In this document: positions 33,725 through 62,978 of the stretch, in pieces
Position numbering within the stretch: position 1 is the first letter of the stretch
Layout: the number at the start of each line of letters is the position of its first letter
Notes under the pieces: generated by a model
Database searches by the model: none
The model's input: only the letters and a program-made list of their open reading frames with translations
What the model was told of the DNA's origin: nothing
Origin: a virus
IMG/VR virus record: IMGVR_UViG_3300033182_000538
Coordinates: 102,989-166,988 of that record
Strand: one strand, 5' to 3'
DNA: 64,000 nucleotides
Program-made: the position numbers and the translations under genes

Positions 33725-34000
33725 TTATGCCCAAGTATATGAACCATCAGACCCATTAAGTACAGTAGTACCTGATTGGAAATCTTCTGGAATAGTGAGT
33801 GAGCCAGTAGCAATAGTTAGAGGTTCTCTTGAACCATAATCCCAACCATTAGCAGGTAGGCCCCATTCAGCGGTTCTTTCAACGATTGAAAAGTGAGTAG
33901 CGCTACCCGAACCATCAGTTGCTACATCCTCAAACGTAAAACCTTCACCAATCCACTCGATTATGTTGGTGGTTTTTTGTCTAACTAAATTGTGTGCCAT
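33725..34000 (-). CDS. Small acidic, probably virion-associated protein in its own transcription unit
   Basis: AGGAG SD, two late motifs upstream and a terminator on each side. Confidence 0.65.
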   Translation of the reverse strand: MAHNLVRQKTTNIIEWIGEGFTFEDVATDGSGSATHFSIVERTAEWGLPANGWDYGSREPLTIATGSLTIPEDFQSGTTVLNGSDGSYTWA

Positions 34001-34049
34001 ATTTTCTCCTTGTTTTGGTTAACCATTTATAAATATGGATATAAATAAT

Positions 34050-34074
34050 AAAAAACCCCCTAAAAAGGGGGTTT
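34050..34074 (-). terminator. Rho-independent terminator after the tail tube gene
   Basis: AAACCCCC-ttttta-GGGGGTTTTTT. Confidence 0.75.
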
Positions 34075-34108
34075 CAAATCTCACTTCACATTTATCACAA
34101 TCCGTATT

Positions 34109-34597
34109 TTAATATTGTAAGATAGCGTAGTCGTAAGTTAATGTCAATTCAACAGTTGCAAGGTCTTCACCAGCGTAGTCCATATCTGAGAAATTAGCTG
34201 ATTGAACGTATGCACCTTTGAGTGTCCACTCTTCTACTTTATCACCAACAGGACCCAAACTGTTGAATGTGATATCTTTCTTATAGAAATCAGAGTATCC
34301 ATCACGACCAGTTACCGATTCGTGGTGTAGTCTTACCCACTCCATTACCGCTTGTGCCGCAGAAGGGACAACAGGGTCGTATAAAGTGATTGATAAATCT
34401 TGCCATTCTGAACGACCTTTTACATATCTTCTTACGTTGATATGGTCAATAGTCACTTTACCATTTTGAATCTCTGGTCTGGCAGCCGTTTTCACTAAGT
34501 ACGCAGGAATACCTTCGATGTACATAATGAACCTATTTGACATTTTAGGTTCAAAGTTAGTGAACATAATTTCATTTGGGTCTAATAATTGTGCCAT
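34109..34597 (-). CDS. Tail tube protein (T4 gp19-like)
   Basis: NRF...WQDLSITLYDP...EWTLKGAY...LTYDY; directly follows the sheath gene. Confidence 0.88.
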   Translation of the reverse strand: MAQLLDPNEIMFTNFEPKMSNRFIMYIEGIPAYLVKTAARPEIQNGKVTIDHINVRRYVKGRSEWQDLSITLYDPVVPSAAQAVMEWVRLHHESVTGRDGYSDFYKKDITFNSLGPVGDKVEEWTLKGAYVQSANFSDMDYAGEDLATVELTLTYDYAILQY

Positions 34598-34644
34598 TTA
34601 TATTCTCCTATTATCTCTTTCTAATAAATAGTCTTTTTTATTTT

Positions 34645-36978
34645 TTATCCTTCAGGAAAAGCTGCGCCAGTTGGAAGTACGTTGAAATCAAGTACAATGA
34701 ACTCAGCAGTTTTAGCTGGTTGGATAAAAATCTCACCTTTTAATATATTTCTATCAATCACATCTGGCGTGTTGTTTGTTTCATCCATAATCACTCTAAA
34801 TGCGTACAAACCTTGTCTTTGTTGTACTGATTCTAAGTAAGGATTAACAATCGACAAGAATCTATTTCTTGTAGCAGCCGTGTTATTTTCAAAGATTAAG
34901 TATCTTGAAGATGATGCGATGAATTTTTTCAATGCAATCAACAATCTTCTTACATTGATTCTATCTAATGCCGATGGTTTAGCTTGAAGTGTTTTCTGAC
35001 CGAATACCGTAGCACCTTGTCCAGGGAACGTAGCGATTGGGTTAATACGACCTTCATACAAGTCATCTCTCTCAGCGTGAGTCAATCTTGTTTTTACTTC
35101 AATTACGTTTGGTAAACCACCTCTATTCAAACCGGCAGGTGCGAACCAAGGTTCAGCAACTGAGTCGTTAAATGCGATAACACCAGGAATTACAACACTT
35201 GGTGGTACCCAGACTGGTTTGTTTTTATCAGTATCTAAAATCTTAGCCCAAGGGTGGTAAGTAGCAACGTAGTTAGAATCAAACGAAGTTAGTGAGTTTT
35301 TCACAGTAGCGATTGAATCTTGGTAGCCACCTGCATCCATTACATAGAATGTATCTTGTCTATCTTCACACATATCTTTAGCGAATGTAGTAACTGAAGA
35401 GTGTAGTCTATTGATTACACCAGGAATTACTAACATATTGATATCAAACTCATCAGGGTTTGAGATAGCGTTGATAGCTTTTCTATAAGCAACAGTACCA
35501 GCAGCGGTAGCCGAAGAACAATCTAAACCTTGTGTGTTACCAGCAACAATATCCGTACCCACGTTGATTACTCTATTTGGCTCCCATCCATCGAATCCAC
35601 CTTGGAATGGTACTAAGAATTTCTTATCATCTACGCCAGAAGTTAATGTGATAGGTGACCCATTTGATTCACAATCAGCCAAGTCGAAATCGTTACCAAC
35701 AGTTTCGGTGTTAGCATCTGGAGTTGGGTATAAGAAGTTTAAGTTATCAGTATTCGTAAAGTCAAAGTTGTAACCTAAGAATACTCTTTTATTGTATGTA
35801 TCGTTCAATGATTGAGATACAGCGTATGTTGGACTTGGTAATGTGTGACCACTATGTAATGGTGAAACTACTGCGCCGAATCCGAATGGAACTAAAGTTG
35901 AATCAACCGAACCATTTTTAACATCATCAGTTACCTCAACTCTAATGTGAGCCGAAGCGTTGTTGTAATCACCATTAGTAGACAACTTACCATTTGCGTC
36001 AACAGTAATATATTTGTCACCAATTACTCTTGAAATAAAGTTTGGTGAGTTAGGGTCTAAGTTAAGACCTGTATACTCTTCTACAATGTTTGGTCTCAAG
36101 TCAGTATCTTGTACACCTTGACCAAAAATTGAGTTAGGAATCTTAGAAGTATCTACTCTTCTTATGATAAGACTGAATGAACCATATTCTGAGCCAGGAA
36201 CATCAGAAGCTGGTTTTACATCTCTAATACCTACTTTGAATTCGTAGTTAGTAGCGTTACCGTGAGATAAAGTATGTACTTTAAATAAGTTAGTAGCATT
36301 ACCACCCACTTTTTGTGATTTAATCCAAGGAGTAGAAGCGTATGAATAAGCTTTTGTGTAATCAGTATCGTATTGTTCAACTGAAACAAGTACTTGTTCG
36401 CCAGTAGCGAAAGATGCTGATTGGAATGTGTTAAAGTTTAAGTATGTATACGCGTCTTTAGAAGATTTAGGAGAGTATCCAAATGTTTTAGTAATGTAAT
36501 TAGCATTTGTTGGATTTAAAGATGCAGATGTGTTTGTCACACTAACATCACTACCTGTTAACGTAAGTACAAATGATGATGCACTTGCAACTGAGTCAAT
36601 TGATGATGAATCAAAATCACCAGTTGTAGAGGTAGTTGTTGGGTGAAGTACAGCAGCTACTTTTTGACCTTGTGATGATGAAATCACTAAAGCCAATGGT
36701 TTAGCCGTATATCCTTCTTGTCCTAATACTCTTACGATATTAGCTGTTCCAGCTTCTTCTAAATAAGATTGAGCGGTATACGGAAGGTATGAATCTTCAG
36801 TAAGACCACCAAACTTTTGTTGGAATTCTTGGAAAGACTCTACTTGAGTTGGTACAAACGCAGGGCCTTTAATACTTTGTCCTATAAGAGCCGCACCAAT
36901 CTCACCAATACCTTGTGGTAAGAATGAGAGGTCTTTTTCTCTTGTAAATACACCTGGACTTACAATTCTTTCTGCCAT
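34645..36978 (-). CDS. Tail sheath protein (T4 gp18-like)
   Basis: SPGVFTREKD, WFAPAGLNRG, LYEGRINPI, FGQKTL, RINVRRL, FENN. Confidence 0.95.
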   Translation of the reverse strand: MAERIVSPGVFTREKDLSFLPQGIGEIGAALIGQSIKGPAFVPTQVESFQEFQQKFGGLTEDSYLPYTAQSYLEEAGTANIVRVLGQEGYTAKPLALVISSSQGQKVAAVLHPTTTSTTGDFDSSSIDSVASASSFVLTLTGSDVSVTNTSASLNPTNANYITKTFGYSPKSSKDAYTYLNFNTFQSASFATGEQVLVSVEQYDTDYTKAYSYASTPWIKSQKVGGNATNLFKVHTLSHGNATNYEFKVGIRDVKPASDVPGSEYGSFSLIIRRVDTSKIPNSIFGQGVQDTDLRPNIVEEYTGLNLDPNSPNFISRVIGDKYITVDANGKLSTNGDYNNASAHIRVEVTDDVKNGSVDSTLVPFGFGAVVSPLHSGHTLPSPTYAVSQSLNDTYNKRVFLGYNFDFTNTDNLNFLYPTPDANTETVGNDFDLADCESNGSPITLTSGVDDKKFLVPFQGGFDGWEPNRVINVGTDIVAGNTQGLDCSSATAAGTVAYRKAINAISNPDEFDINMLVIPGVINRLHSSVTTFAKDMCEDRQDTFYVMDAGGYQDSIATVKNSLTSFDSNYVATYHPWAKILDTDKNKPVWVPPSVVIPGVIAFNDSVAEPWFAPAGLNRGGLPNVIEVKTRLTHAERDDLYEGRINPIATFPGQGATVFGQKTLQAKPSALDRINVRRLLIALKKFIASSSRYLIFENNTAATRNRFLSIVNPYLESVQQRQGLYAFRVIMDETNNTPDVIDRNILKGEIFIQPAKTAEFIVLDFNVLPTGAAFPEG

Positions 36979-37015
36979 TATTTTCTCCTAAATTAAATCT
37001 TTGGGTTTACCTTTA

Positions 37016-37023
37016 TATAAATA
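37016..37023 (-). promoter_or_regulatory. Putative late promoter TATTTATA (representative of about 15 copies)
   Basis: TAYTTATW recurs in intergenic DNA upstream of structural genes; see findings. Confidence 0.6.
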
Positions 37024-37048
37024 CTCCAAAAATTCTCAAAACGACTAT

Positions 37049-37330
37049 TTATTCAGTAGGTGTGAAGGTATTGGTCGTTACATCGTAAGTTCCATCACCA
37101 TATTTCTCTCTTAATTCAGTAGATAATTTAGATTCTTCCAATTTAAGCTCACCATATGAACCTAATAATTGTTCCTTTTCATCTTTAAGTTGTTTGAATC
37201 TATCATCCAACCCTCGGACATCTACTTCTATTTCACCTAATCGTGCTGTGATTGACACAACCTTTGACTGAATACTTAATATTCGTTCTTTTTCTTCGTT
37301 GGTAAACGATTTTACTACTTTTTCTGCCAT
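37049..37330 (-). CDS. Small coiled-coil protein
   Basis: Heptad-rich sequence ending KYGDGTYDVTTNTF. Confidence 0.6.
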   Translation of the reverse strand: MAEKVVKSFTNEEKERILSIQSKVVSITARLGEIEVDVRGLDDRFKQLKDEKEQLLGSYGELKLEESKLSTELREKYGDGTYDVTTNTFTPTE

Positions 37331-37375
37331 AACACTTATTTAATTGTTTGTTTCACTAATATAAATATGAAAAAA

Positions 37376-38215
37376 TTATTCATTACCTATGTTTGGGTAT
37401 GATTCATTTCCACTTAATTTTGGACTTTCACCCCAAGACACCTTACCAATAGATATTTTTCTATTAGTATTGTTAGCCATAGCCGCATATTCTGGAACTA
37501 TGTATGCTTTTGTAGTTAGATTAATATTTGCTTTTGTGATTCTATCTTGACCCATTTCTGAAATAGTTTCGAATGAATATGAATCACCCTTTATCACAAA
37601 TTTATATCTATCACCAAATGAACGACCTTGGAAAAACACGATTTGTTCTACAATCTTGTTTACTTGTTCCATATAATCACACCAAACAACCACTTCATAT
37701 TCTAAGTTTACATAATCAGGTCTTTCAACCGACATAAACTCTCTCTTTTCTTGTTGTTCAGTTAATATGGAAAACTGGTCGTATCTATTTACTCGTGTAT
37801 ATTTTCTTTCAAACATTTGATGAGTATCTTCATTTTGAGCAACTTTTAATTTTGCCAACTCGGTATTGATTGAAAGATTATTTCTTTTAAATGAGATAAC
37901 TGGTGTTAGAATCATACCATTGTCATCTCTCATAAACCCATCTCTTTGAGCAGAAGCCCATTTTTCAGGAGATGCATACATTACTGGTACTGGATAAAAT
38001 CTACCATCATCTTCGACAGTAGGTTTAACATCTTTTTCTAAAAAGTTTTTAAACGCAGAATCTACATCGTAGATACCAACTGAAAAATTCTTTACGTTAT
38101 CTTGGTCTCTACGAAGTTGTTTAGCCTTATTTAATTTAGGGTCAACCGTAGTGGAAGACTCAGTTTGAATAATTCTTGGCTTTGATTTATCTTCGTTTCT
38201 ATACTTTATTGCCAT
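37376..38215 (-). CDS. Tail completion / sheath terminator (gp15-like)
   Basis: VPVMYASPEKW, PDYVNLEY, QVNKIVEQI; order gp13-gp14-gp15-sheath. Confidence 0.7.
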   Translation of the reverse strand: MAIKYRNEDKSKPRIIQTESSTTVDPKLNKAKQLRRDQDNVKNFSVGIYDVDSAFKNFLEKDVKPTVEDDGRFYPVPVMYASPEKWASAQRDGFMRDDNGMILTPVISFKRNNLSINTELAKLKVAQNEDTHQMFERKYTRVNRYDQFSILTEQQEKREFMSVERPDYVNLEYEVVVWCDYMEQVNKIVEQIVFFQGRSFGDRYKFVIKGDSYSFETISEMGQDRITKANINLTTKAYIVPEYAAMANNTNRKISIGKVSWGESPKLSGNESYPNIGNE

Positions 38216-38216
38216 T

Positions 38217-38744
38217 TTATAATCCTAATGGTACTTCGTTATCGTTTTGTCGAGAGTTACCTTTATAAGTATCTACTAATTTAATAGTTGATTGTCTTGT
38301 AACGTGAGCATCACATATAATAGATACATTAAGACCTTGTGTATCACCACCATCCCAAGTATCTGGATTTTTACCAGCAAAATACTGATATGAATATGAA
38401 GCATCTATTAAATGATATTCATTATTCCATTGAATAATATCACCAACTTCAGGTACAAGATTTTTATCAACTAAAGTATCTCTTAAAAATCTAAACTGAA
38501 CTTCACGAGAGTATGATTGTCCAAAGTCATCAGATATTTGAGCTGCTTGACCTCTTTCTATTAAACAAGGAACTTTTATTGGTTGGTTATAAACTTTATC
38601 TTTACCCTCACCATATAAATTAGATTTAGTTTCGGTCAATGCGACTTGATAATAGTATATCTCCGTATCAACAATATCATTGATAAGTTCTTTGTTTACT
38701 TTATTAAACAACGACATATCTCTTTGTCCACCGAATAATGCCAT
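38217..38744 (-). CDS. Neck / head-closure protein (gp14-like)
   Basis: NLYGE and PEVGDII; synteny. Confidence 0.7.
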   Translation of the reverse strand: MALFGGQRDMSLFNKVNKELINDIVDTEIYYYQVALTETKSNLYGEGKDKVYNQPIKVPCLIERGQAAQISDDFGQSYSREVQFRFLRDTLVDKNLVPEVGDIIQWNNEYHLIDASYSYQYFAGKNPDTWDGGDTQGLNVSIICDAHVTRQSTIKLVDTYKGNSRQNDNEVPLGL

Positions 38745-38748
38745 TTAA

Positions 38749-39912
38749 TTATCCTATGTAAATTGGTCTTGGGACTCTATTAAGTGTTTCTTCTAAATAT
38801 TCAGATTCTTCTTTTTTAGCTTCCATCAATGCTCTACGAGAAGTAGATTCTAACATCTCAGTTAATTGAGTCATCAATGTTTCCTTTTCAGCAGATGCTT
38901 CGTTACGAAGGTCAGACCCATCAAGAGTTACATCAGCGCCAGGAATTGGAATCGCTGAGAACTTAGCTCTTACAGCACCCAACATCTCTTTAGCCAATGC
39001 TAATGTGTATCTTGCAATCCATTGTTTTCCAGCTGAGTTAATTTTATTATATTCTAATCTTCCAAATGGAGCGTTTGATAAATCACTCACAACATTTGAA
39101 GCTGCGATTGGTGAATTCACTTCTGAATCTAATGTATAATCGAAGTATACTTTACTACCTTCATCACCGCTCGTTGGTTTTGGGAATAATCTAATTCTTT
39201 GACCATCAACGTGGAAACCAAATGATGATTTTCTAATATGGTCATTGAACTCAATAGCTTGAAGTCTTAAAAGGTCATCAAACATTGGTTGCATCATAAA
39301 TGATACGCCCGGTGAATAAGCTCCCCATCCAAATGTTTGTAACATTTGTTGTGAACCAAGACCTGTACCTACGAATGGGTCAAAGTATCTAATGATTGCC
39401 GGTGGTTGAGTGTGGTATACTCTACGAAGAGTTACACCATTTGAAACTGAACCACTTTCTAAATCAACAACATCAGCATTACCCAAATCATAAATTTGTT
39501 GACCACCAACCATTTGGAAAGAACCTGTATAGACAGTAACCTTACCACCACTCAATGCCTCAGTACCATAATCTTTTGCGATATTTACTAAGTTTTGCAT
39601 ATTGTTGTTCATATTGGTATTTGATAAATCCAAATCCAAAGATGAACCTTGAAGTGATAATAAATTTTCCTTAGCTCTATATTGATTCACTTGAGATGAA
39701 TACTCATTTGTTGCTTCTTCAAAACAAGCAAAGAAATTGATGTCTTGAAGTTCAACATCAACGATTGGGTATCCTAATCTCTTAGCACACCATTCAGCTA
39801 CTTTCGGTGCGTCTGATTGGAATTGTGTATCCGTATCAAAATATCCGAAAGGAGTTGATGAACCTGTGACAAATGAACCAGAACCTGGCCATATTGGAAT
39901 ATTTACTGACAT
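38749..39912 (-). CDS. Neck protein (gp13-like)
   Basis: RLGYPIVDVEL, WIARYTLALAKEMLGAVRAKF, IPGADVTLDG. Confidence 0.8.
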   Translation of the reverse strand: MSVNIPIWPGSGSFVTGSSTPFGYFDTDTQFQSDAPKVAEWCAKRLGYPIVDVELQDINFFACFEEATNEYSSQVNQYRAKENLLSLQGSSLDLDLSNTNMNNNMQNLVNIAKDYGTEALSGGKVTVYTGSFQMVGGQQIYDLGNADVVDLESGSVSNGVTLRRVYHTQPPAIIRYFDPFVGTGLGSQQMLQTFGWGAYSPGVSFMMQPMFDDLLRLQAIEFNDHIRKSSFGFHVDGQRIRLFPKPTSGDEGSKVYFDYTLDSEVNSPIAASNVVSDLSNAPFGRLEYNKINSAGKQWIARYTLALAKEMLGAVRAKFSAIPIPGADVTLDGSDLRNEASAEKETLMTQLTEMLESTSRRALMEAKKEESEYLEETLNRVPRPIYIG

Positions 39913-39947
39913 TTACATCTCCTTTATGTATATAAATATGGTAATAC

Positions 39948-41624: not shown

Positions 41625-41625
41625 A

Positions 41626-42918: not shown

Positions 42919-42921
42919 AAT

Positions 42922-43524
42922 TTATCTATATGGTTCACCACCCACCCAAAGTACAAACGATTTTCGAATACCCTTGGTTACAGGTTTTACTCTATGTAAA
43001 TAAAATGATGGGAAAATCACAGCAGCTCCTTGATTTTTAGGAACTGTAATATGTCTACCTATGTTGAATTCTAAATCACCACCTTCGTAATCTTCGGATG
43101 ATGACAATTGAACAGTTACTGATATTTTTCTTTGATTTTGAATATCTACACCACAATCCATATGCCATTCATAACCACCTTCATTAGTTCCATAGTACTC
43201 AGTATATTGAATTTTTTCTTCCATAGTACTTAAATCAAACTTCCACATAGTATCGTTAGCTTCAGTAATCATATTATGTAGTTTTTCATAAACCCAAGCC
43301 CACTCTAAATTTTGTGGACACCATTTTATTCTTGATTTTCTATAATCTGAAACTTTTGCCGAATCTCCTTCGCCAGTTACAGCATCTTGAAATTCTAAGT
43401 TGGATGTCATTTGTTCAATGAGTACTAATTCTTGGGGAGTGAATCCATTTTTGAACCAATAATAATCATTGAAAGTTACATCTTGCCTATATGAGTTACG
43501 GCTAAATGAGAATTTTTTATTCAT
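42922..43524 (-). CDS. 2OG-Fe(II) oxygenase, prolyl-4-hydroxylase/PKHD type
   Basis: WHMD, RKISVTVQLS, YEGGDL, FPS...HRVKPVTKGIRKSFVLW. Confidence 0.88.
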   Translation of the reverse strand: MNKKFSFSRNSYRQDVTFNDYYWFKNGFTPQELVLIEQMTSNLEFQDAVTGEGDSAKVSDYRKSRIKWCPQNLEWAWVYEKLHNMITEANDTMWKFDLSTMEEKIQYTEYYGTNEGGYEWHMDCGVDIQNQRKISVTVQLSSSEDYEGGDLEFNIGRHITVPKNQGAAVIFPSFYLHRVKPVTKGIRKSFVLWVGGEPYR

Positions 43525-43562
43525 AACTAATTTCTTTATATATAAATATGATTTTTTATTTA

Positions 43563-51509: not shown

Positions 51510-51546
51510 AGGTTTATTCTACTTTACTTATATAAGTATTAAATTT

Positions 51547-51576
51547 AAAAAATAAAATCCCCATAGGTGGGGATTC
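51547..51576 (-). terminator. Rho-independent terminator
   Basis: AATCCCCA-ccta-TGGGGATT-TTATTTTTT. Confidence 0.7.
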
Positions 51577-51578
51577 AT

Positions 51579-51770: not shown

Positions 51771-51776
51771 AACATT

Positions 51777-51980: not shown

Positions 51981-51999
51981 AACTAAATTTATTTAAAAA

Positions 52000-53676: not shown

Positions 53677-53773
53677 TTTGTTTTCCTTTTTTTTGTGTTA
53701 ACACTTTATTTTATTGATATATCAATTCGTAACTTGTTTACTTTATATAAGTATATTTTTTTTATTTAAAACA

Positions 53774-54466
53774 TTACTCAATACCAAAATAAAACGAAGA
53801 TGCTGAATAAGCAATAGCACCTTCTTCTGCTGTTGGTAATGTTGAGTATTCTTTTAATTTTAATAACCCATCCGCTATTGAAAGAGAACCTGTTATTTCT
53901 ATATCGTTTGTTGTAGAATATGCTGAGCCAGTAGCTCTAAACAATCCTAATTCATTTACTGCGTTTATGAAGTGTACTGATGAAGTATTTAATGTTAAAG
54001 TTACGCCACCAGTCAATCCACCACCACTTAAACCATCACCAGCAGTAACGCCTGTGATATCGCCTGAACCACCTCCACCTGAACCAGTCAATGCTGATAA
54101 ATCTACTGAAGATGAGATTCGAGTTGAACCTATCAAATCTTGACCAAAGAATGTTAGTGTATTTACTCCATCAAATGAAGCGGATACAAATGAACCACTA
54201 TAAAATGAAAATTCAGTAAAAGATACACTATCTTCATAAATACCTTCACCTGGATTTGCTAATGTAACATTGGCTTTGTATAATGAAGCACTATCAATAG
54301 CATAAACTATATCCCCATCGTAGAAATAGTTTGGGTGTATAGAATTCATCTCATTAGCAGTATCATATACTCTAAAGGCACCTCTGATTCTATCAATATC
54401 GGCTAAACGCGTATTGTTATTCTGAGCTGCGGTTGATAATACTAATTTTGAATTAAAGCTTGGCAT
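53774..54466 (-). CDS. Virion fibre-associated protein
   Basis: GGGSGDITGVTAGDGLSGGG motif shared with 54480-59066; AGGAG SD. Confidence 0.55.
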   Translation of the reverse strand: MPSFNSKLVLSTAAQNNNTRLADIDRIRGAFRVYDTANEMNSIHPNYFYDGDIVYAIDSASLYKANVTLANPGEGIYEDSVSFTEFSFYSGSFVSASFDGVNTLTFFGQDLIGSTRISSSVDLSALTGSGGGGSGDITGVTAGDGLSGGGLTGGVTLTLNTSSVHFINAVNELGLFRATGSAYSTTNDIEITGSLSIADGLLKLKEYSTLPTAEEGAIAYSASSFYFGIE

Positions 54467-54479
54467 CTATATACTCCTA

Positions 54480-57400
54480 TTATACTCCACCCGAACCACT
54501 TGATGGGCTTAGTCCAAGGTTAATATTAGTTGTAGATGAAACTTGATTAGCCGCACCTACCATAAACCAAGTTGTATACCCAAAGTGACTTGTTACTAAG
54601 TCAAATTGATTAATTTCTGATGTTTCGATTGTATTTGTACCATCAATAGTTGTTCCATCAGTACCAACTTCTAATACATATTCTCCAGCAGTAGAACCAC
54701 CATAACTATCACGAGTACTTGTTGGTACACCCGACATTTGTGACCCACTTGGCATAATTAATACAAAGTGAACACTTGAGTTACGAGAAATAGTACCACT
54801 ACTACCCATACCCCTTAATACATCGTGAACATTTGTTCCACTACCCGATGCTAGTAACGTAGCAGTTCGTGTTGAACCATAGGTATAATCAAATGAACTA
54901 CTACCAATTTTGTTATCGTTAATAATTGCATCAACAAATCCTTGATTACTAAATGGTGTAGCAACTGGTGGAGTTGAACTATCTTCGCTACTAATACCTA
55001 CTGAAGTATTGTAAGCTGCGTTGTTAAATCCAACATCATAAAGATATACTTTACCATATAATTCAGTATCAGGCGCGAATACGTTAACAGTAACTGACCC
55101 ACTACCTAAGTTACCATACTGGTCTTGGAATGTAATATCCGTTGTAATTGTATCACCACTACCAGATGTTGTTGAACTTACATCAACATTCATTGACAAC
55201 CCACCATTACTATCAACTGCGATTGCTGAATTTGATGATGTGAATGATGAAACTGCTTGTGAGTTGTAACTTGGTGAGTATGATACATTTAAGTCGGAAT
55301 CACTACCATTACCTTCACCAGTAACATTTTGTAGATTTGTACCACTTACAGCATTTGATATAATAAATGAGTTAGTATCACCTGTCAAAGTACCCACTGT
55401 TGATTGTGCGATGGTAAATGTATGTTCTTCCGTGTTTGTTCTAAATCCGTGAGTATCTTCAATACTCGCCGTAATAGCGTATGTTGTAGACCCACTTAAA
55501 TTTTCAGTAGCTTGTACTAAGTAAGTAGCACCACTACGTTTAGAGTTTAATTGACCACTTGGGTCAGTAAACGTAAATACATCGTGATTTATACTATCAC
55601 TCTCAACATCACTAAATGAAATTGTTGTCAGAGTACTACCACTTCTTGCACCATTGGTATTTAGGTTAGCCGATGTATTTGTGAATATGATATCTGGAGC
55701 ACTATTTGGTTCTACTTTAATTGTGTAATCAAAGTATTGTTTTGTAGTTTCAAATGAGTGTTCTGATGCGGTTATCGCTAGTGCGATAATACTTCCTGAT
55801 GTATAGATAGACCCACTAATATTTTGATTTGCTTGTAAGTATGTAGCAGAGCCAGTAACATTACTTGCTTTAATCATATCACCAGTAGATGAAACTTCCC
55901 ATCGTTGTATCACAGAACCACCGGCTGATGTTAATTGGGCAAATGTACCAGTTAGTCCTAAAATACCATTTTCTTTTCTAACATAGTAGTTTTCACCAAC
56001 GGATTCCATAATGTGTAATGAATCCCAATTGTCCGTAATTGATGCAGCTAAATCATCTGCGATAGGAATTGTAATCAAACCTGTATCAGTAGTTGTATTA
56101 AATGCGTCAGTCACCGTTACTTCATAAATGTAATTATTGGCAACATCTGAATTTAGGAATACTCCAATCTTTCTTGTAACCACACCCGTAGAACTTACTT
56201 GGAATGGGTCACGTGCGGGATTGTACAAATCACCAGCACCAGCATCCAAACTTGCTTTGATATCAGCGCCACCATCTAAGTTTACTTCTTGTAAAGTAAA
56301 GTTAGAGAATGTGATTGTATTTGTCTCAGGGTCAGTTGCACTAATTGTACCAGCATTTGCACCATTTGATGAATTCTCATTTACACCGCTAAGAGTTTGA
56401 TTATTTACACTTGGCCCAATGTTATCAACAACTGCGATTTGGAATGGTAAATATTTTATTGATTCAATATCATCACCATCTTCATAATGTTGGTCACTTG
56501 CTGTCAATACAAATTCGTATTGAGTTATATCTTCATAATCTAACGAAGCCGTTAATTGATTTAATTGAACATATGTTGATTCAATGTCTAATGAGAATTT
56601 ATTAGTAAAGTCAGTTGATAACGAACCGGTACCAATTGTGATTGTATCACTTTCATCATCCGTAAAGAATACTCTTGCTTTGTTACTACCTGCGGCTGAG
56701 TCTTCATTTAAAGATGATGTGAATGTTGTAATTACTGAACCAGCGATTGAAACTTCTCTCCACTTTGGAGCAGTATTTGGATTTACTCTAATGTATATTG
56801 TTTTTGAACCAACACCATTAAACGTATCTACCGCTTCTACTAAGAATGGATGTGAACCTGAACTTGGTGTGTTGTCAGTATTCATAGAAGCCGTTGATTT
56901 AACATTTAAGGTAACAGCCCCACCACTTGATATTCTAAAGAAATCATCAGTATATGCACTTGATGTTCTGAATGTTACCGATTGACCTTCAGCATCAGAA
57001 GCGACAACTGTTCCAACTGATGAACCACTTACTTCAAATTCTTCGATTGTGAATCCGTGAGATGTAATTGATGGTACAGTATTTGGGAAGAATACTTTTT
57101 CAATAAAGTTTGATAATGACCCACTTGTTCCAAAGTTTACATTATAAATACCACTTGGCAAGTCGGTATTAGAAACAGTTCTATTTCCATCAAATTCAGA
57201 ACCACTAATTTCAACAAGACCACTAGCTGAATTTATTGTGATATCAACGCCACCGGCGAACACTTGGTCACCAGTAAATCCTGAAGCAGCAGCCGATGCT
57301 GATACTTGAGCTGAACTTGATACCACACCATTTGGTAAACTATCTACAACTTGTGTTGAACTTGATATTGTACCACTTGGTAAACTTGATATTACTTGAG

Positions 57401-59066
57401 CCGATGATGAAATCGTACCATCTGGAATAGAACTACCACCCGACCCAAATCCAGCAGTTGCCGCTGATGCGGATACAGCCGTTGTAAAGTGAGTAGATGA
57501 TGTATCTAATGTTAGTGTAGCGTCTCCGCTACTTGCACCACCTTCAAGACCAAGACCTGCGTTTACAGCGGTAATATCACCAGAACCACCACCTGATAAA
57601 GCTTCGGCAAGAGATGCCGAGACATTAGGGAATCCTGTGATACCCAATCCGCCTGTAATTTCTACTTTTAGGTCAGTACCACCATCGCCAGTTTGCATTC
57701 TAATTCGTTGGAGGTTACTGCCACTATCATAATATTCAAATACTTTAGTACCACCATTATTAGCTATACTAACACCACCCACACCATCACTTCCACCAGC
57801 ACCAACACTACTCTTACCTCTAAGAGATAATTGACCGCCTGTTTTTGTAAAGGTTATGTGTTGATATCCATCAGCCGCCATCCCAAACCCTTTAGTAGGG
57901 AAGACTATATTGTTTCGGGTTGTGGATACATTATCCTCACCAAATGCTGTGATTCTACCATCTACGCGTAAGCTACCTGTTATTTCAGCTGAACCTGTAT
58001 GTGGGAATGCGTTTCCTGCCCCACCACTACCAAATCCAGCTTCTGCAACCGAGCGAGATACCTCAGTATCAAAGTTTGTGATACTTGAAGTTGTAATTGG
58101 AAGTATTTGGTCTGAGCTTGAAATAATACCTGCAGCTAAACCTGCAATAGCAGTTGCTGAAAGTGAACCTGAAATATCATCTGCAATTTGAGCTGATGAA
58201 CTTAATATGTTTGAAGGAACATCTGAAATATTATTATATGATACTTGAGCAGAAGCACTTATAGTGCCATTTGGTAAATTTGCTATTGTTTGTGCCGAAC
58301 TCGATACAAGTCCACTTGGTACATTAGTTAGACTATTGAAGTCATTTGTTCCACCACCACTACCAAATCCAGCTTCTGCAACCGAGCGAGATACCTCAGT
58401 ATCAAAGTTTGTGATACTTGAAGTTGTAATTGGAAGTATTTGGTCTGAGCTTGATACAAGACCACTTGGTAATTGTTCAGATGAACTTAGAATACCACTT
58501 GGTACGTTGGTAAGGTTGTCATAATCAATAGAACCTGTTAAAGATGTTGCGTGTAATGAACCTGTTACTTGTAAATCTGCATTTACAAAATAGTAATCAG
58601 ACCCAGTAGACCAAATAGATGAACCACCTCCACCACCTCCACCAGCAAGTGATGAAAGGTCAACTGAATTACCATCTGAAATAGTAAGATTATTGTTTAC
58701 TGAATTAAAACTTAGTGTTTGTGAATCTGAGCCAGTACTATCAGTTGCGTTTTCTAATGTAGTTAATCTCGAAGAAACCGAACCCGAATCGGTTGGGTAA
58801 GTTACTTCTCTAAATCTATTATTAGCTGTTATAGAGTTTTTTTGGAACGCAGAAATTACGTTTGGTTTATTTGCTATTTGAGTATAACTTATCTGAGCTG
58901 ATGATGATATTAATCCCGTACCATCATAACTAACTTGGTCAGATGATGAAATAACACCACTTGGTAAATTAGCTATAATCTGCGCAGATGATGAAATAAC
59001 ACCATTTGATGCGGTAATTTCTCCAAAAAATGACCCACTAAATGAACCTGTATAGTCAAATGACAT
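54480..59066 (-). CDS. Large Ser/Gly/Thr-rich virion protein with cadherin-like repeats
   Basis: N-terminal LPSGxxSSSxQ repeats and cadherin-type motifs (E...GSSVGTVVASDAEG, LDYE, ENSSNGANAGTISATDPE). Confidence 0.7.
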   Translation of the reverse strand: MSFDYTGSFSGSFFGEITASNGVISSSAQIIANLPSGVISSSDQVSYDGTGLISSSAQISYTQIANKPNVISAFQKNSITANNRFREVTYPTDSGSVSSRLTTLENATDSTGSDSQTLSFNSVNNNLTISDGNSVDLSSLAGGGGGGGSSIWSTGSDYYFVNADLQVTGSLHATSLTGSIDYDNLTNVPSGILSSSEQLPSGLVSSSDQILPITTSSITNFDTEVSRSVAEAGFGSGGGTNDFNSLTNVPSGLVSSSAQTIANLPNGTISASAQVSYNNISDVPSNILSSSAQIADDISGSLSATAIAGLAAGIISSSDQILPITTSSITNFDTEVSRSVAEAGFGSGGAGNAFPHTGSAEITGSLRVDGRITAFGEDNVSTTRNNIVFPTKGFGMAADGYQHITFTKTGGQLSLRGKSSVGAGGSDGVGGVSIANNGGTKVFEYYDSGSNLQRIRMQTGDGGTDLKVEITGGLGITGFPNVSASLAEALSGGGSGDITAVNAGLGLEGGASSGDATLTLDTSSTHFTTAVSASAATAGFGSGGSSIPDGTISSSAQVISSLPSGTISSSTQVVDSLPNGVVSSSAQVSASAAASGFTGDQVFAGGVDITINSASGLVEISGSEFDGNRTVSNTDLPSGIYNVNFGTSGSLSNFIEKVFFPNTVPSITSHGFTIEEFEVSGSSVGTVVASDAEGQSVTFRTSSAYTDDFFRISSGGAVTLNVKSTASMNTDNTPSSGSHPFLVEAVDTFNGVGSKTIYIRVNPNTAPKWREVSIAGSVITTFTSSLNEDSAAGSNKARVFFTDDESDTITIGTGSLSTDFTNKFSLDIESTYVQLNQLTASLDYEDITQYEFVLTASDQHYEDGDDIESIKYLPFQIAVVDNIGPSVNNQTLSGVNENSSNGANAGTISATDPETNTITFSNFTLQEVNLDGGADIKASLDAGAGDLYNPARDPFQVSSTGVVTRKIGVFLNSDVANNYIYEVTVTDAFNTTTDTGLITIPIADDLAASITDNWDSLHIMESVGENYYVRKENGILGLTGTFAQLTSAGGSVIQRWEVSSTGDMIKASNVTGSATYLQANQNISGSIYTSGSIIALAITASEHSFETTKQYFDYTIKVEPNSAPDIIFTNTSANLNTNGARSGSTLTTISFSDVESDSINHDVFTFTDPSGQLNSKRSGATYLVQATENLSGSTTYAITASIEDTHGFRTNTEEHTFTIAQSTVGTLTGDTNSFIISNAVSGTNLQNVTGEGNGSDSDLNVSYSPSYNSQAVSSFTSSNSAIAVDSNGGLSMNVDVSSTTSGSGDTITTDITFQDQYGNLGSGSVTVNVFAPDTELYGKVYLYDVGFNNAAYNTSVGISSEDSSTPPVATPFSNQGFVDAIINDNKIGSSSFDYTYGSTRTATLLASGSGTNVHDVLRGMGSSGTISRNSSVHFVLIMPSGSQMSGVPTSTRDSYGGSTAGEYVLEVGTDGTTIDGTNTIETSEINQFDLVTSHFGYTTWFMVGAANQVSSTTNINLGLSPSSGSGGV
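58021..58454. repeat. Perfect ~101-bp direct repeat (58021-58121 and 58354-58454)
   Basis: Identical DNA encoding SSDQILPITTSSITNFDTEVSRSVAEAGFGSGG, offset 333 bp. Confidence 0.9.
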
Positions 59067-59129
59067 TAAATACTCCTCACAAACTTGGTTTTAATATATA
59101 ATAAATAGTTGTAGAATCTTAAATCAGTC

Positions 59130-59792
59130 TTATTCATAAGAAAATAACAATTTTAAAACTTCATCTAAAGACTCGTGTCTATGATTATCTTTCAAAACAA
59201 TGTTATAAACATATTCTGATTCTTTTAATTTATGAACTTCGTGTACTGCCGAATCGTTATTGAATTTTAAATCAATTTGTTGAGGGTCTCCACAAAGTAT
59301 CATACGAGAATTCTTACCTAATCTACCCAATACCATAGCTAATTGCTGTTTGGTAAGATTTTGAAACTCATCTACTATAACTATTGAATTATCAAAAGTT
59401 CTTCCACGAAAATGAGATAAGGATACCAACTCAATGGATTCTTCCTTTTCCATCTTTTCTAAAATGTTTGGTTTATTGTAAACCTTTCTCATATTAGAAC
59501 GAATTGGAACTAACCACGGCTCCATCTTTTCTTCTAATGAACCCGGTAAGAATCCATTATCTTCATTTGAGACCGTTGGTCTTGTTATAACAATTTTATC
59601 TACTTCTCTTTTGAAGAACGAATCCAAAGCAATCTGAACCGCTAGTAGCGTTTTACCACTTCCTGCTTTTCCTAAAATAAAATTAAATGGATGTTGTCTG
59701 ATTTCGGTTTTTGCTAATTTTTGTTCTTCCGATAGAGTAATTGAAAATCTGATGTTTCCTTTTGGAACTCTTTTCTCTGTATTTTCAGGCAT
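59130..59792 (-). CDS. phoH: PhoH-family ATPase
   Basis: GKAGSGKT, TRP, GFLPG, RGRTF, DEFQN, GDPQQID. Confidence 0.95.
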   Translation of the reverse strand: MPENTEKRVPKGNIRFSITLSEEQKLAKTEIRQHPFNFILGKAGSGKTLLAVQIALDSFFKREVDKIVITRPTVSNEDNGFLPGSLEEKMEPWLVPIRSNMRKVYNKPNILEKMEKEESIELVSLSHFRGRTFDNSIVIVDEFQNLTKQQLAMVLGRLGKNSRMILCGDPQQIDLKFNNDSAVHEVHKLKESEYVYNIVLKDNHRHESLDEVLKLLFSYE

Positions 59793-59851
59793 ATTGTTAT
59801 ATCCTTTTGTTTTACAAGTCTATGTCTAATATAAATATAAGGATATAAAAT

Positions 59852-59879
59852 AAAAAAGGGTGACCGAAGCCACCCTTTT
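59852..59879 (-). terminator. Rho-independent terminator after the major capsid gene
   Basis: AAAAGGGTGGC-ttcg-GTCACCCTTTTTT. Confidence 0.85.
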
Positions 59880-59901
59880 ATATCATTATGGTTAATTTAG
59901 A

Positions 59902-61494
59902 TTACCCTAAAGTATCCAAACCTGCGCAGTATACTTTACCATAGAACTCACCTCTCACCATTTGCTTAGCGTAACGAGTCATTACACCTTTTCTTGGTTG
60001 GAAGTTAGTTGGGTCGTATACTAACGGAGTCATAATTAACGGAATGTAAGGAGCGTAAACAGCACCAGTTTCAAGGAATTGTGAACCTTTGAAACCTAAT
60101 AAGATTACGTTCTCTTTCATATAAGGATTCTTGTACACTTGGTATCTGTTAGCGAATGAACCTACTTGAGAAACACCCATAGCAAATTGCATTTCGTTAC
60201 CTGTACCAGCAGCAGTAAATCCTGAGATAGATTCTAACACTGTAGCAACATCAGGAGATACTACCATAAAGTTAGCACCACCTCTCATTGTCTTAGAGTG
60301 GATTTGGTTAGAAACTCTTTGTAACACTGTACCAAGAGTCTGGAACCATTGTTGTTGAGTGTATCTAGCAGCAGTACCTGAAGCAGCAAATGCTGAACCA
60401 TTCCACTCATCACCTACTTTAGCAGACCAGTGACCTTCAGTCAACGCATTAGACATTAACATATCTAAGATTTCTAAGTCAATCTCTTGTGAGATGTACT
60501 CTGATAACATAGAAGTTAATTCAGCTTCAGCATCGATTGAGTGGTATGCGTTCAAGTCTTGCGCGAATTCTGGTGTCCACTGTGCTTTTAACTTTCTTGT
60601 CTTAGCAACGATTGGCACACTTCTTAATTCTACGTTCAACTCTGGAATACCTAAGTCAGTACCACCAGAAGTAGTATCTTCGAAATCACCTCTTGTGATA
60701 TCAGTTGGTTGTTTTTGGTAGTTAACTACAATATTAGTAATTGAGTCAGACCCTTCAACAACGAATCTTACATTTGAACCTACAATAGCAGTGTATGCTG
60801 GGAAGTAGTTAGTAATGTTCGAACCTGAAATTTCAAATGCTCTTACACCTTCTGAATCGTAACCTGACAATGAAGATACAGGCACAGACACTGTTCTTAA
60901 AGTAGCATTAGCCATTGAAGCTGAGAACTTAGAATCGTAGTTTACAATACCGAAACCAGCAGCTGAACCTAGGTCGATAGCACCTGATACAGGAGTAGCG
61001 ATAACTGCAGATGAAGTTTCGTTGATTGTGTAACCAAATCTACCAGCACCATAAAGACCTTCTACAGCGTTTGAACCAGTTTCAGTAATACCGAATACTG
61101 AGTCAGTTTGTGAATCTTTACCTGCGCCAGTTTCAAAACCAGGTTGTGCAGTACCATACTTGAAGTCCAAGTAGAATACAAGACCTGATGGTAAGTTCAT
61201 TGGTTGTACAGAAACGAATTCTTTAGCAGCGATTTCGCTGAAAATTCTTCTTACCAATGGTAAAGCTACACCAGCCCACTCTTCTGAGTTTGCAGATGTA
61301 CCAGTTTGTGAAGCCTCTTTTACCAACTCTCTAGCTTGGTTTTCAAGAAGAGTAGCAATAGAGCTTCTTTCGAATTCAGACTCGATACCTTCTAAAAGGC
61401 CAGTCTGTGTCCACTTATCTACCAATCCTTTTGTCTCTTCAGACATTTTTCTTTGGAAACCGGCAGACTCGTTTAATAATGAATTTGTATCCAT
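59902..61494 (-). CDS. Major capsid protein (T4 gp23-like)
   Basis: LLENQ, VQPMNLPSGLVF, TRKLKAQWTPEFAQDLNAYH, YAPYIPL, FQPRKGVMTRY. Confidence 0.96.
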   Translation of the reverse strand: MDTNSLLNESAGFQRKMSEETKGLVDKWTQTGLLEGIESEFERSSIATLLENQARELVKEASQTGTSANSEEWAGVALPLVRRIFSEIAAKEFVSVQPMNLPSGLVFYLDFKYGTAQPGFETGAGKDSQTDSVFGITETGSNAVEGLYGAGRFGYTINETSSAVIATPVSGAIDLGSAAGFGIVNYDSKFSASMANATLRTVSVPVSSLSGYDSEGVRAFEISGSNITNYFPAYTAIVGSNVRFVVEGSDSITNIVVNYQKQPTDITRGDFEDTTSGGTDLGIPELNVELRSVPIVAKTRKLKAQWTPEFAQDLNAYHSIDAEAELTSMLSEYISQEIDLEILDMLMSNALTEGHWSAKVGDEWNGSAFAASGTAARYTQQQWFQTLGTVLQRVSNQIHSKTMRGGANFMVVSPDVATVLESISGFTAAGTGNEMQFAMGVSQVGSFANRYQVYKNPYMKENVILLGFKGSQFLETGAVYAPYIPLIMTPLVYDPTNFQPRKGVMTRYAKQMVRGEFYGKVYCAGLDTLG

Positions 61495-61517
61495 TTTTAT
61501 TTCCTCTATTTTTAATT

Positions 61518-62585
61518 TTACTTAATTAGACCGGCCAATTTCTTAAATCGGTCAGCCACATCATTACCTTCTGAGATTATAGATTTGCTAGGAGCAGTTG
61601 ATGTAGTTGGTTTTGAAGCCAAAGACTCCTTAACAACTGTTTTAGGTTTTCTTGCAACATTTAAGTTTTCACCTAATGTAGCGAATACCAATTTAACTTC
61701 TCTTAAATTAGCAGCTCTATCAAAATTCTCAATAACTTTCATTTTTTGTGACTCATTCAAATCAAAAGTTCTGAATACTTTATTAGTATAAAGAAGTTTA
61801 GCGTTCAAAAGATTTACTTCGTTAATAGTGTTTCTTAAAGATTCGATAGTCTTGTAAGCTTCTTCTAACTCAGCTTCTTTTTCTTCGTTATAACCTTCTT
61901 CTTTTACTTCTTCTTCAGATACTTCTTCTTCTTCAGACATCTCTTTCAAAGTTGAGATGATTTCTTCTAAAGAAAGTTCTTCATCATTCTCTACTTCAGA
62001 TGAATCAGCAGCATCATCACTTGGTTCAGCGTTTTCACCATCACCAATATCAGATGAGTCTAATTCTTCTTCGATAGATTCTTCTTCATCACCTTCTTCA
62101 ACTTCTTCATCTTCTTCTTCGTTCAAAGAAGCTTCAAGTTCAGCGATTACTGATTCAAGGTCGAGTTCATCCTCTTCCTCTTCATCCATCATCTCTTCAA
62201 CTTCTTCTTCTTCGTTGTAAGTTTCTTCAACTTCTTCTTCAGACTCTTCATCGTGCATTTCCTCTTCGTGAGACTCAATTTCATCAGAAGCGATATCTTT
62301 TACCTCTTCTTCTTCATCGTTGTCTAACTCTTCTTCAACCTCTGCTTCTTCTTCAGAAACTTCAGCGTCATCACCTTCGTGTGAATCTTCAGCCGCCATC
62401 ATTTCTTCCATTTCTTCTTCAACTTCATCTTCTTCATCTAACTCTTCAGCTAGTTTGTGAGAAAGCATTGATTGGAGTTTTGGAGTAAAAGCCTCTTCAA
62501 GAGCCATCTTAGCGTTTGCCAATGCAGTTTCTTTAACCGCTTTAGCGTCAGCAATAGCCTCTTTTAATAAATCAGATTTAGCCAT
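61518..62585 (-). CDS. Prohead core/scaffold protein (gp22-like)
   Basis: Extremely Glu-rich coiled coil immediately upstream of the major capsid gene; ends RFKKLAGL. Confidence 0.8.
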   Translation of the reverse strand: MAKSDLLKEAIADAKAVKETALANAKMALEEAFTPKLQSMLSHKLAEELDEEDEVEEEMEEMMAAEDSHEGDDAEVSEEEAEVEEELDNDEEEEVKDIASDEIESHEEEMHDEESEEEVEETYNEEEEVEEMMDEEEEDELDLESVIAELEASLNEEEDEEVEEGDEEESIEEELDSSDIGDGENAEPSDDAADSSEVENDEELSLEEIISTLKEMSEEEEVSEEEVKEEGYNEEKEAELEEAYKTIESLRNTINEVNLLNAKLLYTNKVFRTFDLNESQKMKVIENFDRAANLREVKLVFATLGENLNVARKPKTVVKESLASKPTTSTAPSKSIISEGNDVADRFKKLAGLIK

Positions 62586-62738
62586 TACAAATCTCCTAAA
62601 TTATTGTTTTGGACAGTAAGATTATTGGGAATCTTAATAGTGTGTTACTATTTCGTAAGTGACCACTCATTAGATGGGAGTGGTATTTATTCTACAATAA
62701 GTATATAACAAAAATCAAAAACGATAAAGTGTTTACTA

Positions 62739-62978
62739 TTATTGTTCTTTGATTCTCCTTATGTACTCTCTACGAATCGCATCGTTTCTTTGTTTTCTTC
62801 TACGAGTCGTTGGTTTTGTGTATTCTCTTCGGTCTTTTAGTTCTTGGATAACTCCTGATTCTTTTAGGTTTCTTTTCCAAAAACGTAATGCCGCTTCGAT
62901 ATTTCCATTGATAACCTTAGCTCCCTTAAATACGCCAGGTATAATCATAGATTCTTTTTTTGTTTTTTTTCTTGCCAT
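62739..62978 (-). CDS. rpsU: Phage-encoded 30S ribosomal protein bS21
   Basis: V..GNIEAALRFWKR....SGVIQELKDRREYTKPTTRRRK matches the bS21 signature. Start taken as ATG 62978. Confidence 0.85.
   Translation of the reverse strand: MARKKTKKESMIIPGVFKGAKVINGNIEAALRFWKRNLKESGVIQELKDRREYTKPTTRRRKQRNDAIRREYIRRIKEQ

Follow-up and report, generated by a model that had tools for sequence, protein, structure and literature searches.

Late-gene Shine-Dalgarno sites accompany a phage-encoded bS21 in a T4-like marine phage and its relatives: a possible translation switch

Shine-Dalgarno sites and a bS21 gene in the virion modules

We analyzed a window of 64,000 nt (positions 102,989 to 166,988) of the 167-kb viral contig IMGVR_UViG_3300033182_000538. 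The window contains virion genes preceded by Shine-Dalgarno (SD) sites, late promoters and a gene for ribosomal protein bS21 (rpsU):

15887-15894, minus strand: early-type promoter -7 box TATATTTG, 7 nt before the helicase ATG (15879)
32245-32478, minus strand: 77-aa gene; SD GGAG at 32484-32487, 5 nt before the ATG
32494-32503, minus strand: late promoter CATATTTATA ahead of the 77-aa gene
33725-34000, minus strand: 91-aa gene (ATG 34000); SD AAGGAG at 34006-34011 (AGGAG 34006-34010), spacing 5 nt
34028-34037, minus strand: late promoter CATATTTATA ahead of the 91-aa gene
34109-34597, minus strand: tail tube gene (ATG 34597); SD AGGAG at 34605-34609, spacing 7 nt
34623-34630, minus strand: late promoter TATTTATT ahead of the tail tube gene
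34645-36978, minus strand: tail sheath gene (ATG 36978); SD AGGAG at 36985-36989, spacing 6 nt
37016-37023, minus strand: late promoter TATTTATA ahead of the tail sheath gene
38749-39912, minus strand: gp13-like (head completion/neck) gene (ATG 39912); SD AAAGGAG at 39919-39925 (AGGAG 39919-39923), spacing 6 nt
39931-39940, minus strand: late promoter CATATTTATA ahead of the gp13-like gene
53774-54466, minus strand: 230-aa gene (ATG 54466); SD AGGAG at 54474-54478, spacing 7 nt
54480-59066, minus strand: 1528-aa virion-module gene (ATG 59066); SD GAGGAG at 59073-59078, spacing 6 nt
59100-59107, minus strand: late promoter motif TATTTATT ahead of the 1528-aa gene
59902-61494, minus strand: major capsid gene (ATG 61494); SD GAGGA at 61502-61506, spacing 7 nt
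61518-62585, minus strand: scaffold gene (ATG 62585); SD AGGAG at 62593-62597, spacing 7 nt
62739-62978, minus strand: rpsU (bS21, 79 aa); PF01165 at 49.3 bits, with matches to bS21 in the PDB
63003-63027, minus strand: stem-loop with U-run (arms CACCTA.. / ..TAGGTG, -15.7 kcal/mol), between a 56-aa gene and rpsU
63028-63039, minus strand: late-promoter-like TATATTTATAAG, just upstream of the stem-loop

The original prediction placed an AGGAG/GAGGA site 5-7 nt before the ATG of eight late genes, from the scaffold to the 91-aa gene, and all eight are present at these coordinates on the minus strand. SD sites were defined by at least 4-5 nt of complementarity to the anti-SD core, a distance of 5-9 nt from the start and enrichment over the local background. 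The late-gene sites present this complementarity (the motif is the exact complement of the anti-SD core), spacing and enrichment, as expected of SDs. Their predicted duplexes are moderate (-7 to -9 kcal/mol for AGGAG/GAGGA at 5-7 nt) and weaker than the Flavobacterium johnsoniae sites studied (below -13 kcal/mol). A GGA-containing motif at the spacing seen in the major capsid gene is kept in nearly all of 80 relatives of this gene (57-80% identity).

The rpsU gene lies two genes upstream of the major capsid gene and presents no SD (aaactacactat ATG). The order is similar in relatives: protease, bS21, scaffold and major capsid in Mel-JY01, and bS21, scaffold and major capsid in a complete relative (G046). 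The stem-loop ahead of rpsU resembles a terminator. Terminase and portal genes were not found in the 167-kb contig.

Distribution of SD sites over early and late genes

We scored SD sites across the whole 167-kb contig using SD-blind gene calls, with late genes defined by gene module and promoter motif rather than by expression data. In late-module genes, GGAG/GAGG starts peak at -12 to -7 (0.31 per gene, six-fold over control windows), against 0.00-0.08 per gene in all other 6-nt bins from -60 to +60. Likewise, 29% of late genes contain GGAG/GAGG in the 14-nt window at -17 relative to 2-8% (about 5%) in control windows, and early genes are at background (7% and 1-9%, respectively). The core motif was found in 19 of 44 structural genes and 21 of 168 others (P = 1.8e-5; Fisher test), and any SD-like motif in 31/51 late and 29/160 other genes (P = 2e-8; Fisher test). 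The sites also follow promoter class, being present in 13 of the 25 genes adjoining a late promoter and in one of the 19 adjoining an early promoter (P = 1e-3; Fisher test); they accompany the late promoter motif even in three genes outside the virion modules (g90, g98 and g125). Their position is fixed relative to the start codon (-12 to -7), with the late promoter at a variable 12-80 nt upstream, and they are also found on promoterless internal operon genes such as the 230-aa gene.

RecA, helicase, NrdA, NrdB and rpsU lack SDs, as initially proposed, and present A/T-rich upstream sequences or a promoter directly adjoining the start. The -7 box 7 nt from the helicase ATG suggests a leaderless or near-leaderless, SD-less early mRNA, and promoter boxes at 0-8 nt from the start are seen in many early genes. 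SDs are likewise missing from those early genes whose leaders are ordinary. The predicted split between late and early genes is therefore confirmed by this sharp late-only peak, and it recurs in relatives (see below). We conclude that the split is real and exceeds chance; the pattern linking late SDs to bS21 is apparently unreported so far.

The phage bS21 protein

The phage protein matches the PF01165 profile (49.3 bits with a cut-off of 27; E = 7.7e-14) and solved bS21 chains in the PDB (phmmer), with E-values of about 1e-6 to 1e-7 for bS21 of Staphylococcus aureus, mitochondria and E. coli, and 1.3e-3 for F. johnsoniae. By these sequence matches it is a true bS21. It is a small basic protein with a Lys-rich N-terminal extension (MARKKTKKES). 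The ALKxFKR helix is preceded by 29 residues (phage median 31-34), relative to an invariant 14 in 29 Bacteroidia copies; overall, phage copies are longer than these Bacteroidia proteins by 17-20 residues at the N-terminus and more basic in their C-terminal tail, and the basic extension is common to all phage copies. The KPT motif (K55-P56-T57), located between two helices, is invariant or near-invariant in both alignments. The tail that follows it, TRRRKQRNDAIRREYIRRIKEQ, has a net charge of about +7 (counted on that string). Median tail charges are +6 for phage copies with Arg at the Tyr54 site (R-type), +5 for those with Tyr or Phe (Y/F-type) and +3 for the 29 Bacteroidia copies, with overlapping ranges.

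The prediction that the protein carries Arg at the Tyr position of the Bacteroidia KAxY motif was correct: R69 aligns with Tyr54 without gaps, alongside the conserved Ala67 (DAIR in the phage vs KAAY in Bacteroidia). Tyr is found at this site in 28 of about 30 chromosomal Bacteroidia copies, R69 is nearly invariant within the R-type clade, and bS21 of the sister clades has Tyr or Phe. The phage protein thus lacks the traits of Bacteroidia-type sequestration, namely Tyr54, a weakly basic C-terminal domain and a short N-terminus. Upstream of R-type genes, GGTAGGTG and a T-run are kept in relatives. The bS21 gene is without an SD in 47 of 50 distinct relatives; its neighbours present a strong SD in a quarter to a third of cases and some SD-like site in about half. 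The SD-less bS21 genes and the shared basic extension are compatible with a translation switch. A search for phage-encoded bS18, bS6 and IF3, which could act as alternative effectors, was negative.

bS21 and late SDs across related phages

Among named phages, the two nearest relatives are one of Flavobacterium and Mel-JY01, which is the closest by major capsid protein and has Microcystis as its recorded host. The proven Flavobacterium phage of the family, immuto, shares about 60 genes in synteny. A tblastn search of the phage bS21 against GenBank phages returned five weak matches, the annotated Mel-JY01 RpsU not being among them; as a negative tblastn result is thus unreliable, we relied on profile searches from then on. 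The immuto protein in the syntenic slot (immuto_202) was considered as a diverged bS21 and rejected, being acidic and unrelated.

The late bias was recovered in the complete relative (55% of late vs 19% of other genes), in a relative whose bS21 keeps Tyr (G047; 20/30 vs 23/81, i.e., 67% vs 28%) and, for strong sites, in Mel-JY01 (26% vs 8%). Immuto, which lacks bS21, shows no split (3% vs 4%) although it shares the late promoter motif. Across head-module loci, strong sites were found in 31% of genes in loci with R-type bS21, 23% in those with Y/F-type bS21 and 7% in those without bS21. Among immuto-like loci, the frequency was 2.9% in the 47 without bS21 and 23.5% in the four with bS21. In total, 45 of 56 bS21-positive contigs and one of 51 bS21-negative contigs used SDs in the late region (about 107 related contigs). 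On the phylogenies (a quick IQ-TREE tree and a FastTree tree), bS21 was gained or lost independently three times, and all three contrasts go in the same direction (sign test; P = 0.25). Eleven bS21-positive loci are SD-poor (e.g., 1/20 in L039); a weak AAGGA still precedes the major capsid and scaffold genes in a clade without bS21 (L063/L081), and AAAGGAG the major capsid gene in L076/L084. Late-gene SDs therefore co-occur almost only with phage bS21 across these relatives, which suggests that phage bS21 may re-tune host ribosomes for late protein production.

A candidate translation switch and its alternatives

The ribosomes of F. johnsoniae are SD-blind, as bS21, bS18 and bS6 sequester the anti-SD (Jha et al. 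2021, PMC7797042). The Y54A mutation, C-terminal deletion or depletion of bS21 increases SD-dependent translation 2-5 fold and decreases SD-less initiation (McNutt et al. 2023, PMC9976891). From the SD distribution, the co-occurrence with bS21 and the protein features, we infer a programme with two regimes. Early and middle genes would rely on starts that are A/T-rich or leaderless and carry no SD, as is the case in SD-blind Bacteroidia. Late virion genes would combine a TATTTATA-type late promoter with an SD (AGGAG) at the canonical spacing of 5-7 nt. Phage bS21, made from an SD-less start within the head-gene module, would replace or out-compete host bS21 on 30S subunits; on these ribosomes the 16S 3' tail would be released from the bS21/bS18/bS6 pocket, making the anti-SD available. 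Ribosomes would then favour the abundant late mRNAs at the expense of SD-less mRNAs from the host and from early genes. We assign this whole explanation a probability of about 0.45.

The original prediction attributed the switch to Arg at the Tyr54 site. Its late/early split, the association with bS21 and Arg69 itself stand; the discriminating role of the substitution does not. Loss of the stacking tyrosine could in principle free A1534 and the 3' tail: Y54A alone lifts SD-dependent translation about three-fold in F. johnsoniae (PMC9976891), R69 aligns exactly with Tyr54, and R-type loci are slightly richer in strong SDs than Y/F-type loci. However, although a Tyr-type phage bS21 should in theory continue to sequester the anti-SD, G047 is equally enriched in late SDs, and Y/F clade 2 reaches about 32% strong sites (tally of per-locus counts). 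Moreover, the sole sampled Bacteroidia genome whose own bS21 has Arg at this site (G041) shows no SD use (1/86), which gives no support to an association between this Arg and SD use in bacteria. Tyr-to-Arg is therefore not discriminating; as the switch it is improbable, and it probably does not release the anti-SD alone. The releasing feature is probably one that the phage copies all have in common, namely their basic N-terminal extension and more basic C-terminal tail.

Alternatively, and in our view rather unlikely, the hosts might already read SDs, as non-Bacteroidia or atypical Bacteroidota, with bS21 merely co-occurring with host range. SDs would then have arisen solely on the late genes with the highest expression, early genes being without them because promoter and start codon directly adjoin, and the function of bS21 would lie elsewhere, for instance in ribosome supply or generic takeover. 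The recorded Microcystis host of Mel-JY01, which belongs to the same clade and has both bS21 and SDs, is in line with this idea, as are the early promoter boxes that leave no SD room and the better PDB matches outside F. johnsoniae; with just three changes along the tree, bS21 presence could also mark host shifts. However, SDs are equally lacking from early genes with ordinary leaders, the family includes immuto, contigs with phage-type bS21 were binned in a Flavobacterium MAG, and sister-clade bS21 carries the KAxY tyrosine, uniquely conserved in Bacteroidetes (Jha et al., PMC7797042). Other host markers were uninformative. The phage GroEL is about 50% identical to those of Bacteroidia and five other phyla alike and so carries no host signal. 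A Bacteroidota-form promoter (TTTG-N18-21-TAnnTT[TA]G) is 7-fold enriched on the gene strand here and in G046, but not in the positive control immuto, making it unusable as a host marker. A scan of bacterial contigs for bS21 relatives, limited by its peptide patterns, gave mostly Bdellovibrionota (28-36% identity) and two small contigs in Flavobacteriales MAGs, which says little on origin. Overall, a Bacteroidota host appears likely. It is very improbable that the motif is another late-mRNA signal (phage-factor binding or processing, or a transcription start region), or that its link to bS21 reflects phylogenetic inertia. The motif does follow the late promoter, the independent contrasts are few and a weak AAGGA persists in a clade without bS21; against this, it is an exact anti-SD-core complement placed relative to the start codon and not the promoter, it is present on promoterless operon genes, and immuto has the same late promoter without it.

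Comparison with known systems

The proposed switch resembles F. johnsoniae in that anti-SD availability depends on the state of bS21, and C-terminal loss or mutation shifts ribosomes toward SD-bearing and away from SD-less mRNA (PMC9976891, PMC7797042). There, the absence of host bS21 serves one gene with an exceptionally strong SD (rpsU autoregulation, PMC9976891), whereas in the phage case the beneficiaries would be dozens of late genes with moderate SDs, and the agent a foreign bS21 variant; the SD-less phage rpsU is the opposite of the host gene. In freshwater-lake Bacteroidetes phages, bS21 likewise lies in the head-morphogenesis module (protease, scaffold, major capsid) and is expressed with late genes, and it was proposed to enter host ribosomes and favour late phage transcripts (Chen et al. 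2022, PMC9723584). All of those proteins are aromatic at Tyr54, from which the authors argue that anti-SD blocking is preserved; in contrast, the present phage is marine and T4-like and has Arg. That study reports no early-vs-late SD analysis, whereas here late genes carry SDs. The T4-like marine myovirus HTVC008M of Pelagibacter also encodes a bS21, which can enter ribosomes (Mizuno et al. 2019, PMC6375957; Watson et al. 2020, PMC7550191). A comparison of ribosome-binding sites between S21 phages and hosts found no clear relationship (Watson et al. 2020, PMC7550191), and neither study describes an early/late split or a bS21-SD association. In Francisella tularensis, a swapped-in bS21 paralogue likewise changes which mRNAs are translated (PMC9578407), but these are cellular paralogues of a Gammaproteobacterium and are unconnected with anti-SD sequestration or phage timing.

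Published proposals on the reason for the frequent presence of bS21 in aquatic phages end at the suggestion that it may favour phage mRNAs, with no mRNA feature identified. SDs restricted to late genes, present only with phage bS21 and missing from the bS21 gene itself constitute a concrete candidate feature that can be scored. The idea is testable with existing F. johnsoniae reporters and cryo-EM. We tentatively propose, at somewhat less than even odds, that a whole clade of phages, with Bacteroidota as probable hosts, employs its own bS21 paralogue to make SD-blind host ribosomes read SDs as a temporal late switch, with bS21 and late SDs gained and lost together. If causal, this would offer a clear example from nature of a virus that reprograms the specificity of ribosomes through a single swapped ribosomal protein, and it would tie directly to the recently solved mechanism of anti-SD sequestration in Bacteroidia.

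Genome organization

The window is the final 64 kb of an IMG/VR record of 166,988 bp (GC-content 35.7%; CheckV completeness estimate of 87%) that carries about 212 genes, only one of which lies on the plus strand. The phage is a distant member of the T4-like myoviruses. Its major capsid protein (MCP) is 58% identical to that of Microcystis phage Mel-JY01, 55% to that of Flavobacterium phage vB_FspM_immuto (hereafter immuto) and 40% to that of Rhodothermus phage RM378, and about 60 of its proteins have matches in immuto, with their order conserved. The record is incomplete, with open frames leaving both ends (window 63232-64000; genome 1-1203), and the genes of terminase, portal and prohead protease are absent because the contig ends fall within the head module. 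The modules are located as follows:

Window 25-64 kb: head and tail genes
Genome 14-32 kb: baseplate and fibre genes
Remaining genome: replication, nucleotide metabolism and many small early genes

Shine-Dalgarno sites on late genes

The original prediction proposed that phage bS21 frees the anti-Shine-Dalgarno (anti-SD) sequence and directs ribosomes to SD-bearing late genes. The eight AGGAG/GAGGA sites on which it was based are all present, with start codons 5-7 nt downstream, and inspection of the start regions of RecA, helicase, NrdA, NrdB and rpsU confirmed that these lack an SD. We then scored SDs genome-wide, using gene starts that were picked independently of SD presence. GGAG/GAGG starts in late-module genes peak at -12 to -7 (0.31 per gene; at most 0.08 in any other bin from -60 to +60), whereas early genes remain at background. 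Some SD-like site was found in 31/51 late genes versus 29/160 other genes (P = 2e-8), and GGAG/GAGG in 15/51 versus 12/160.

Some SDs break the late-only rule. At -11.7 kcal/mol, the strongest one in the genome (AAAGGAGG) belongs to g121, a small early-region gene of 80 aa with an early-type promoter (genome position 65055, outside the window), and a few further genes of the early region (g109, g133) carry AAGGAG. Within the late head module, a PhoH-like gene (window 59130-59792, minus strand) is preceded by a terminator hairpin, the late promoter motif (59830-59837) and AAAGGA, and its expression thus seems to be late.

Promoter classes

Two classes of motifs were found in intergenic regions, and these classify genes independently. 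The late-gene motif, (C)ATATTTATA, lies 12-80 nt upstream of late genes, with 35 occurrences on the gene strand, 5 on the opposite strand and about 10-11 in shuffled sequences. The early-gene motif, TTTGG-N17-20-cgTAtaTT(A/T)G, precedes many early genes; its -7 box (TATATT[AT]G) often stands 0-8 nt before the start codon, both at 14-24 kb of the window and genome-wide (e.g., 15887-15894, 24029 and 8633), which suggests that many early mRNAs are probably leaderless. A TTAACA-rich repeat was also observed upstream of several early-type promoters.

SD cores are present in 13/25 genes adjoining the late motif versus 1/19 adjoining the early motif (P = 1e-3). The late motif is also present at three genes (g90, g98 and g125) that bear SDs but lie outside the virion modules, and therefore SD presence tracks late transcription, not virion function alone.

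The phage bS21 and its gene

The 79-aa protein is a true bS21 (PF01165 match of 49 bits, and PDB matches). We compared it to bS21 sequences gathered from 40 Bacteroidia genomes; in 28 of the chromosomal copies, a KA[AVI]Y pattern places a tyrosine 12 residues past the serine of KPS. The alignment has no gaps, DAIR of the phage protein stands opposite KAAY and Arg69 occupies the Tyr54 column, as the original prediction had stated. Two features are common to all phage copies: an N-terminus longer by 17-20 residues, including a Lys-rich extension, and a basic C-terminal tail (median net charge of +6 in copies with Arg in this column [R-type], +5 in those with Tyr or Phe [Y/F-type] and +3 in host copies).

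No SD-like motif was found at the bS21 start in 47/50 distinct relatives, which present only an A-rich ..aagttat ATG, whereas about half of the genes at the same loci carry some SD-like site. Such a start is consistent with a protein that has to be translated by unmodified ribosomes. The host rpsU shows the reverse, an exceptionally strong SD (PMC9976891).

A strong stem-loop lies just upstream of the phage rpsU (window 63003-63027, minus strand; -15.7 kcal/mol) and is followed by a U-run; it is probably a terminator. Its arms (CACCTA.. / ..TAGGTG) resemble the anti-SD and SD. GGTAGGTG and a T-run (63028-63039) are retained ahead of the R-type bS21 gene of many relatives.

Distribution of bS21 and SD use across relatives

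The gene of bS21 is located about 1.3 kb upstream of the MCP gene in 57/80 IMG/VR contigs whose MCP is 57-80% identical to that of the phage; 27 of these copies are Arg-type, 28 Tyr/Phe-type and two present other residues. Strong SDs per gene in head-module loci reach 31% for R-type, 23% for Y/F-type and 7% for loci with an empty slot (n = 9), and no PF01165 match was found anywhere on three bS21-less contigs of 34-70 kb. In Mel-JY01, RpsU is annotated in the same slot and GGAG precedes the MCP, sheath, tube and portal genes. Immuto, by contrast, has no bS21, is essentially SD-less throughout (SD-like sites in 2/66 late and 6/153 other genes; only A-rich MCP, sheath and tube starts) and also possesses the late promoter motif. 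Among 80 immuto-like contigs, 47 with adequate flanks lack bS21 and present strong SDs in 2.9% of 661 genes, versus 23.5% in four contigs with a Tyr-type bS21. Overall, SD frequency was high in 45 loci with bS21 and low in 11, and high in one locus without bS21 and low in 50. Only three changes of the bS21 state were placed on the MCP tree, and the three independent pairs all point in the same direction (P = 0.25), significance being out of reach with three.

The mechanism originally advanced, a Tyr-to-Arg substitution, is unsupported as stated. A relative with a Tyr-type bS21 (G047; 20/30 versus 23/81) presents an early/late split as strong as those of the phage studied here and of a complete R-type relative (G046; 32/58 versus 30/160). 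Moreover, the only bS21 detected in one Bacteroidia genome (G041, L164) has Arg at the Tyr54 site (NRAIRRQELY), and its genes do not use SDs (1/86 in the 130 kb sampled). The substitution, although real, therefore does not distinguish SD-using genomes from SD-less ones. Chen et al. stressed that the aromatic residue is kept in their phage proteins (PMC9723584).

Host

Several lines of evidence point to a Bacteroidota host: the kinship with immuto, the SD-less early genes, a Flavobacterium MAG whose bin includes contigs with phage-type bS21 and, in sister-clade bS21, the Bacteroidia-specific tyrosine, which is reported to be uniquely conserved in that phylum (PMC7797042). Against this, Mel-JY01 is labelled a Microcystis phage. 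Neither GroEL nor the promoter motif was informative about the host.

This recorded cyanophage falls in an otherwise Flavobacterium-linked family, with which it has in common the bS21 slot (L011:22183-22410) and TATATTTG promoter boxes, and the host recorded for it should be re-examined. Besides its own Tyr-type bS21, the Flavobacterium MAG (G001) contains three bS21 genes of the phage type, carried by contigs of about 2 kb (L148, L150 and L151) that are probably pieces of phage genomes placed in the host bin.

A possible translation switch

It is established that the anti-SD is sequestered by bS21, bS18 and bS6 and that bS21 mutation increases SD-dependent translation (PMC7797042; PMC9976891). 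Others have already proposed that late phage transcripts are favoured by phage bS21 (PMC9723584; PMC6375957), and Watson et al. found no clear relationship between the ribosome-binding sites of S21 phages and those of their hosts (PMC7550191). In the literature searched, we found no earlier description of SDs that are restricted to late genes and linked to phage bS21. Our results confirm the late-gene SD pattern and show that it generalizes to relatives. We infer the host, the incorporation of phage bS21 into ribosomes and the release of the anti-SD. Based on this comparative evidence, a bS21-driven translation switch is plausible.
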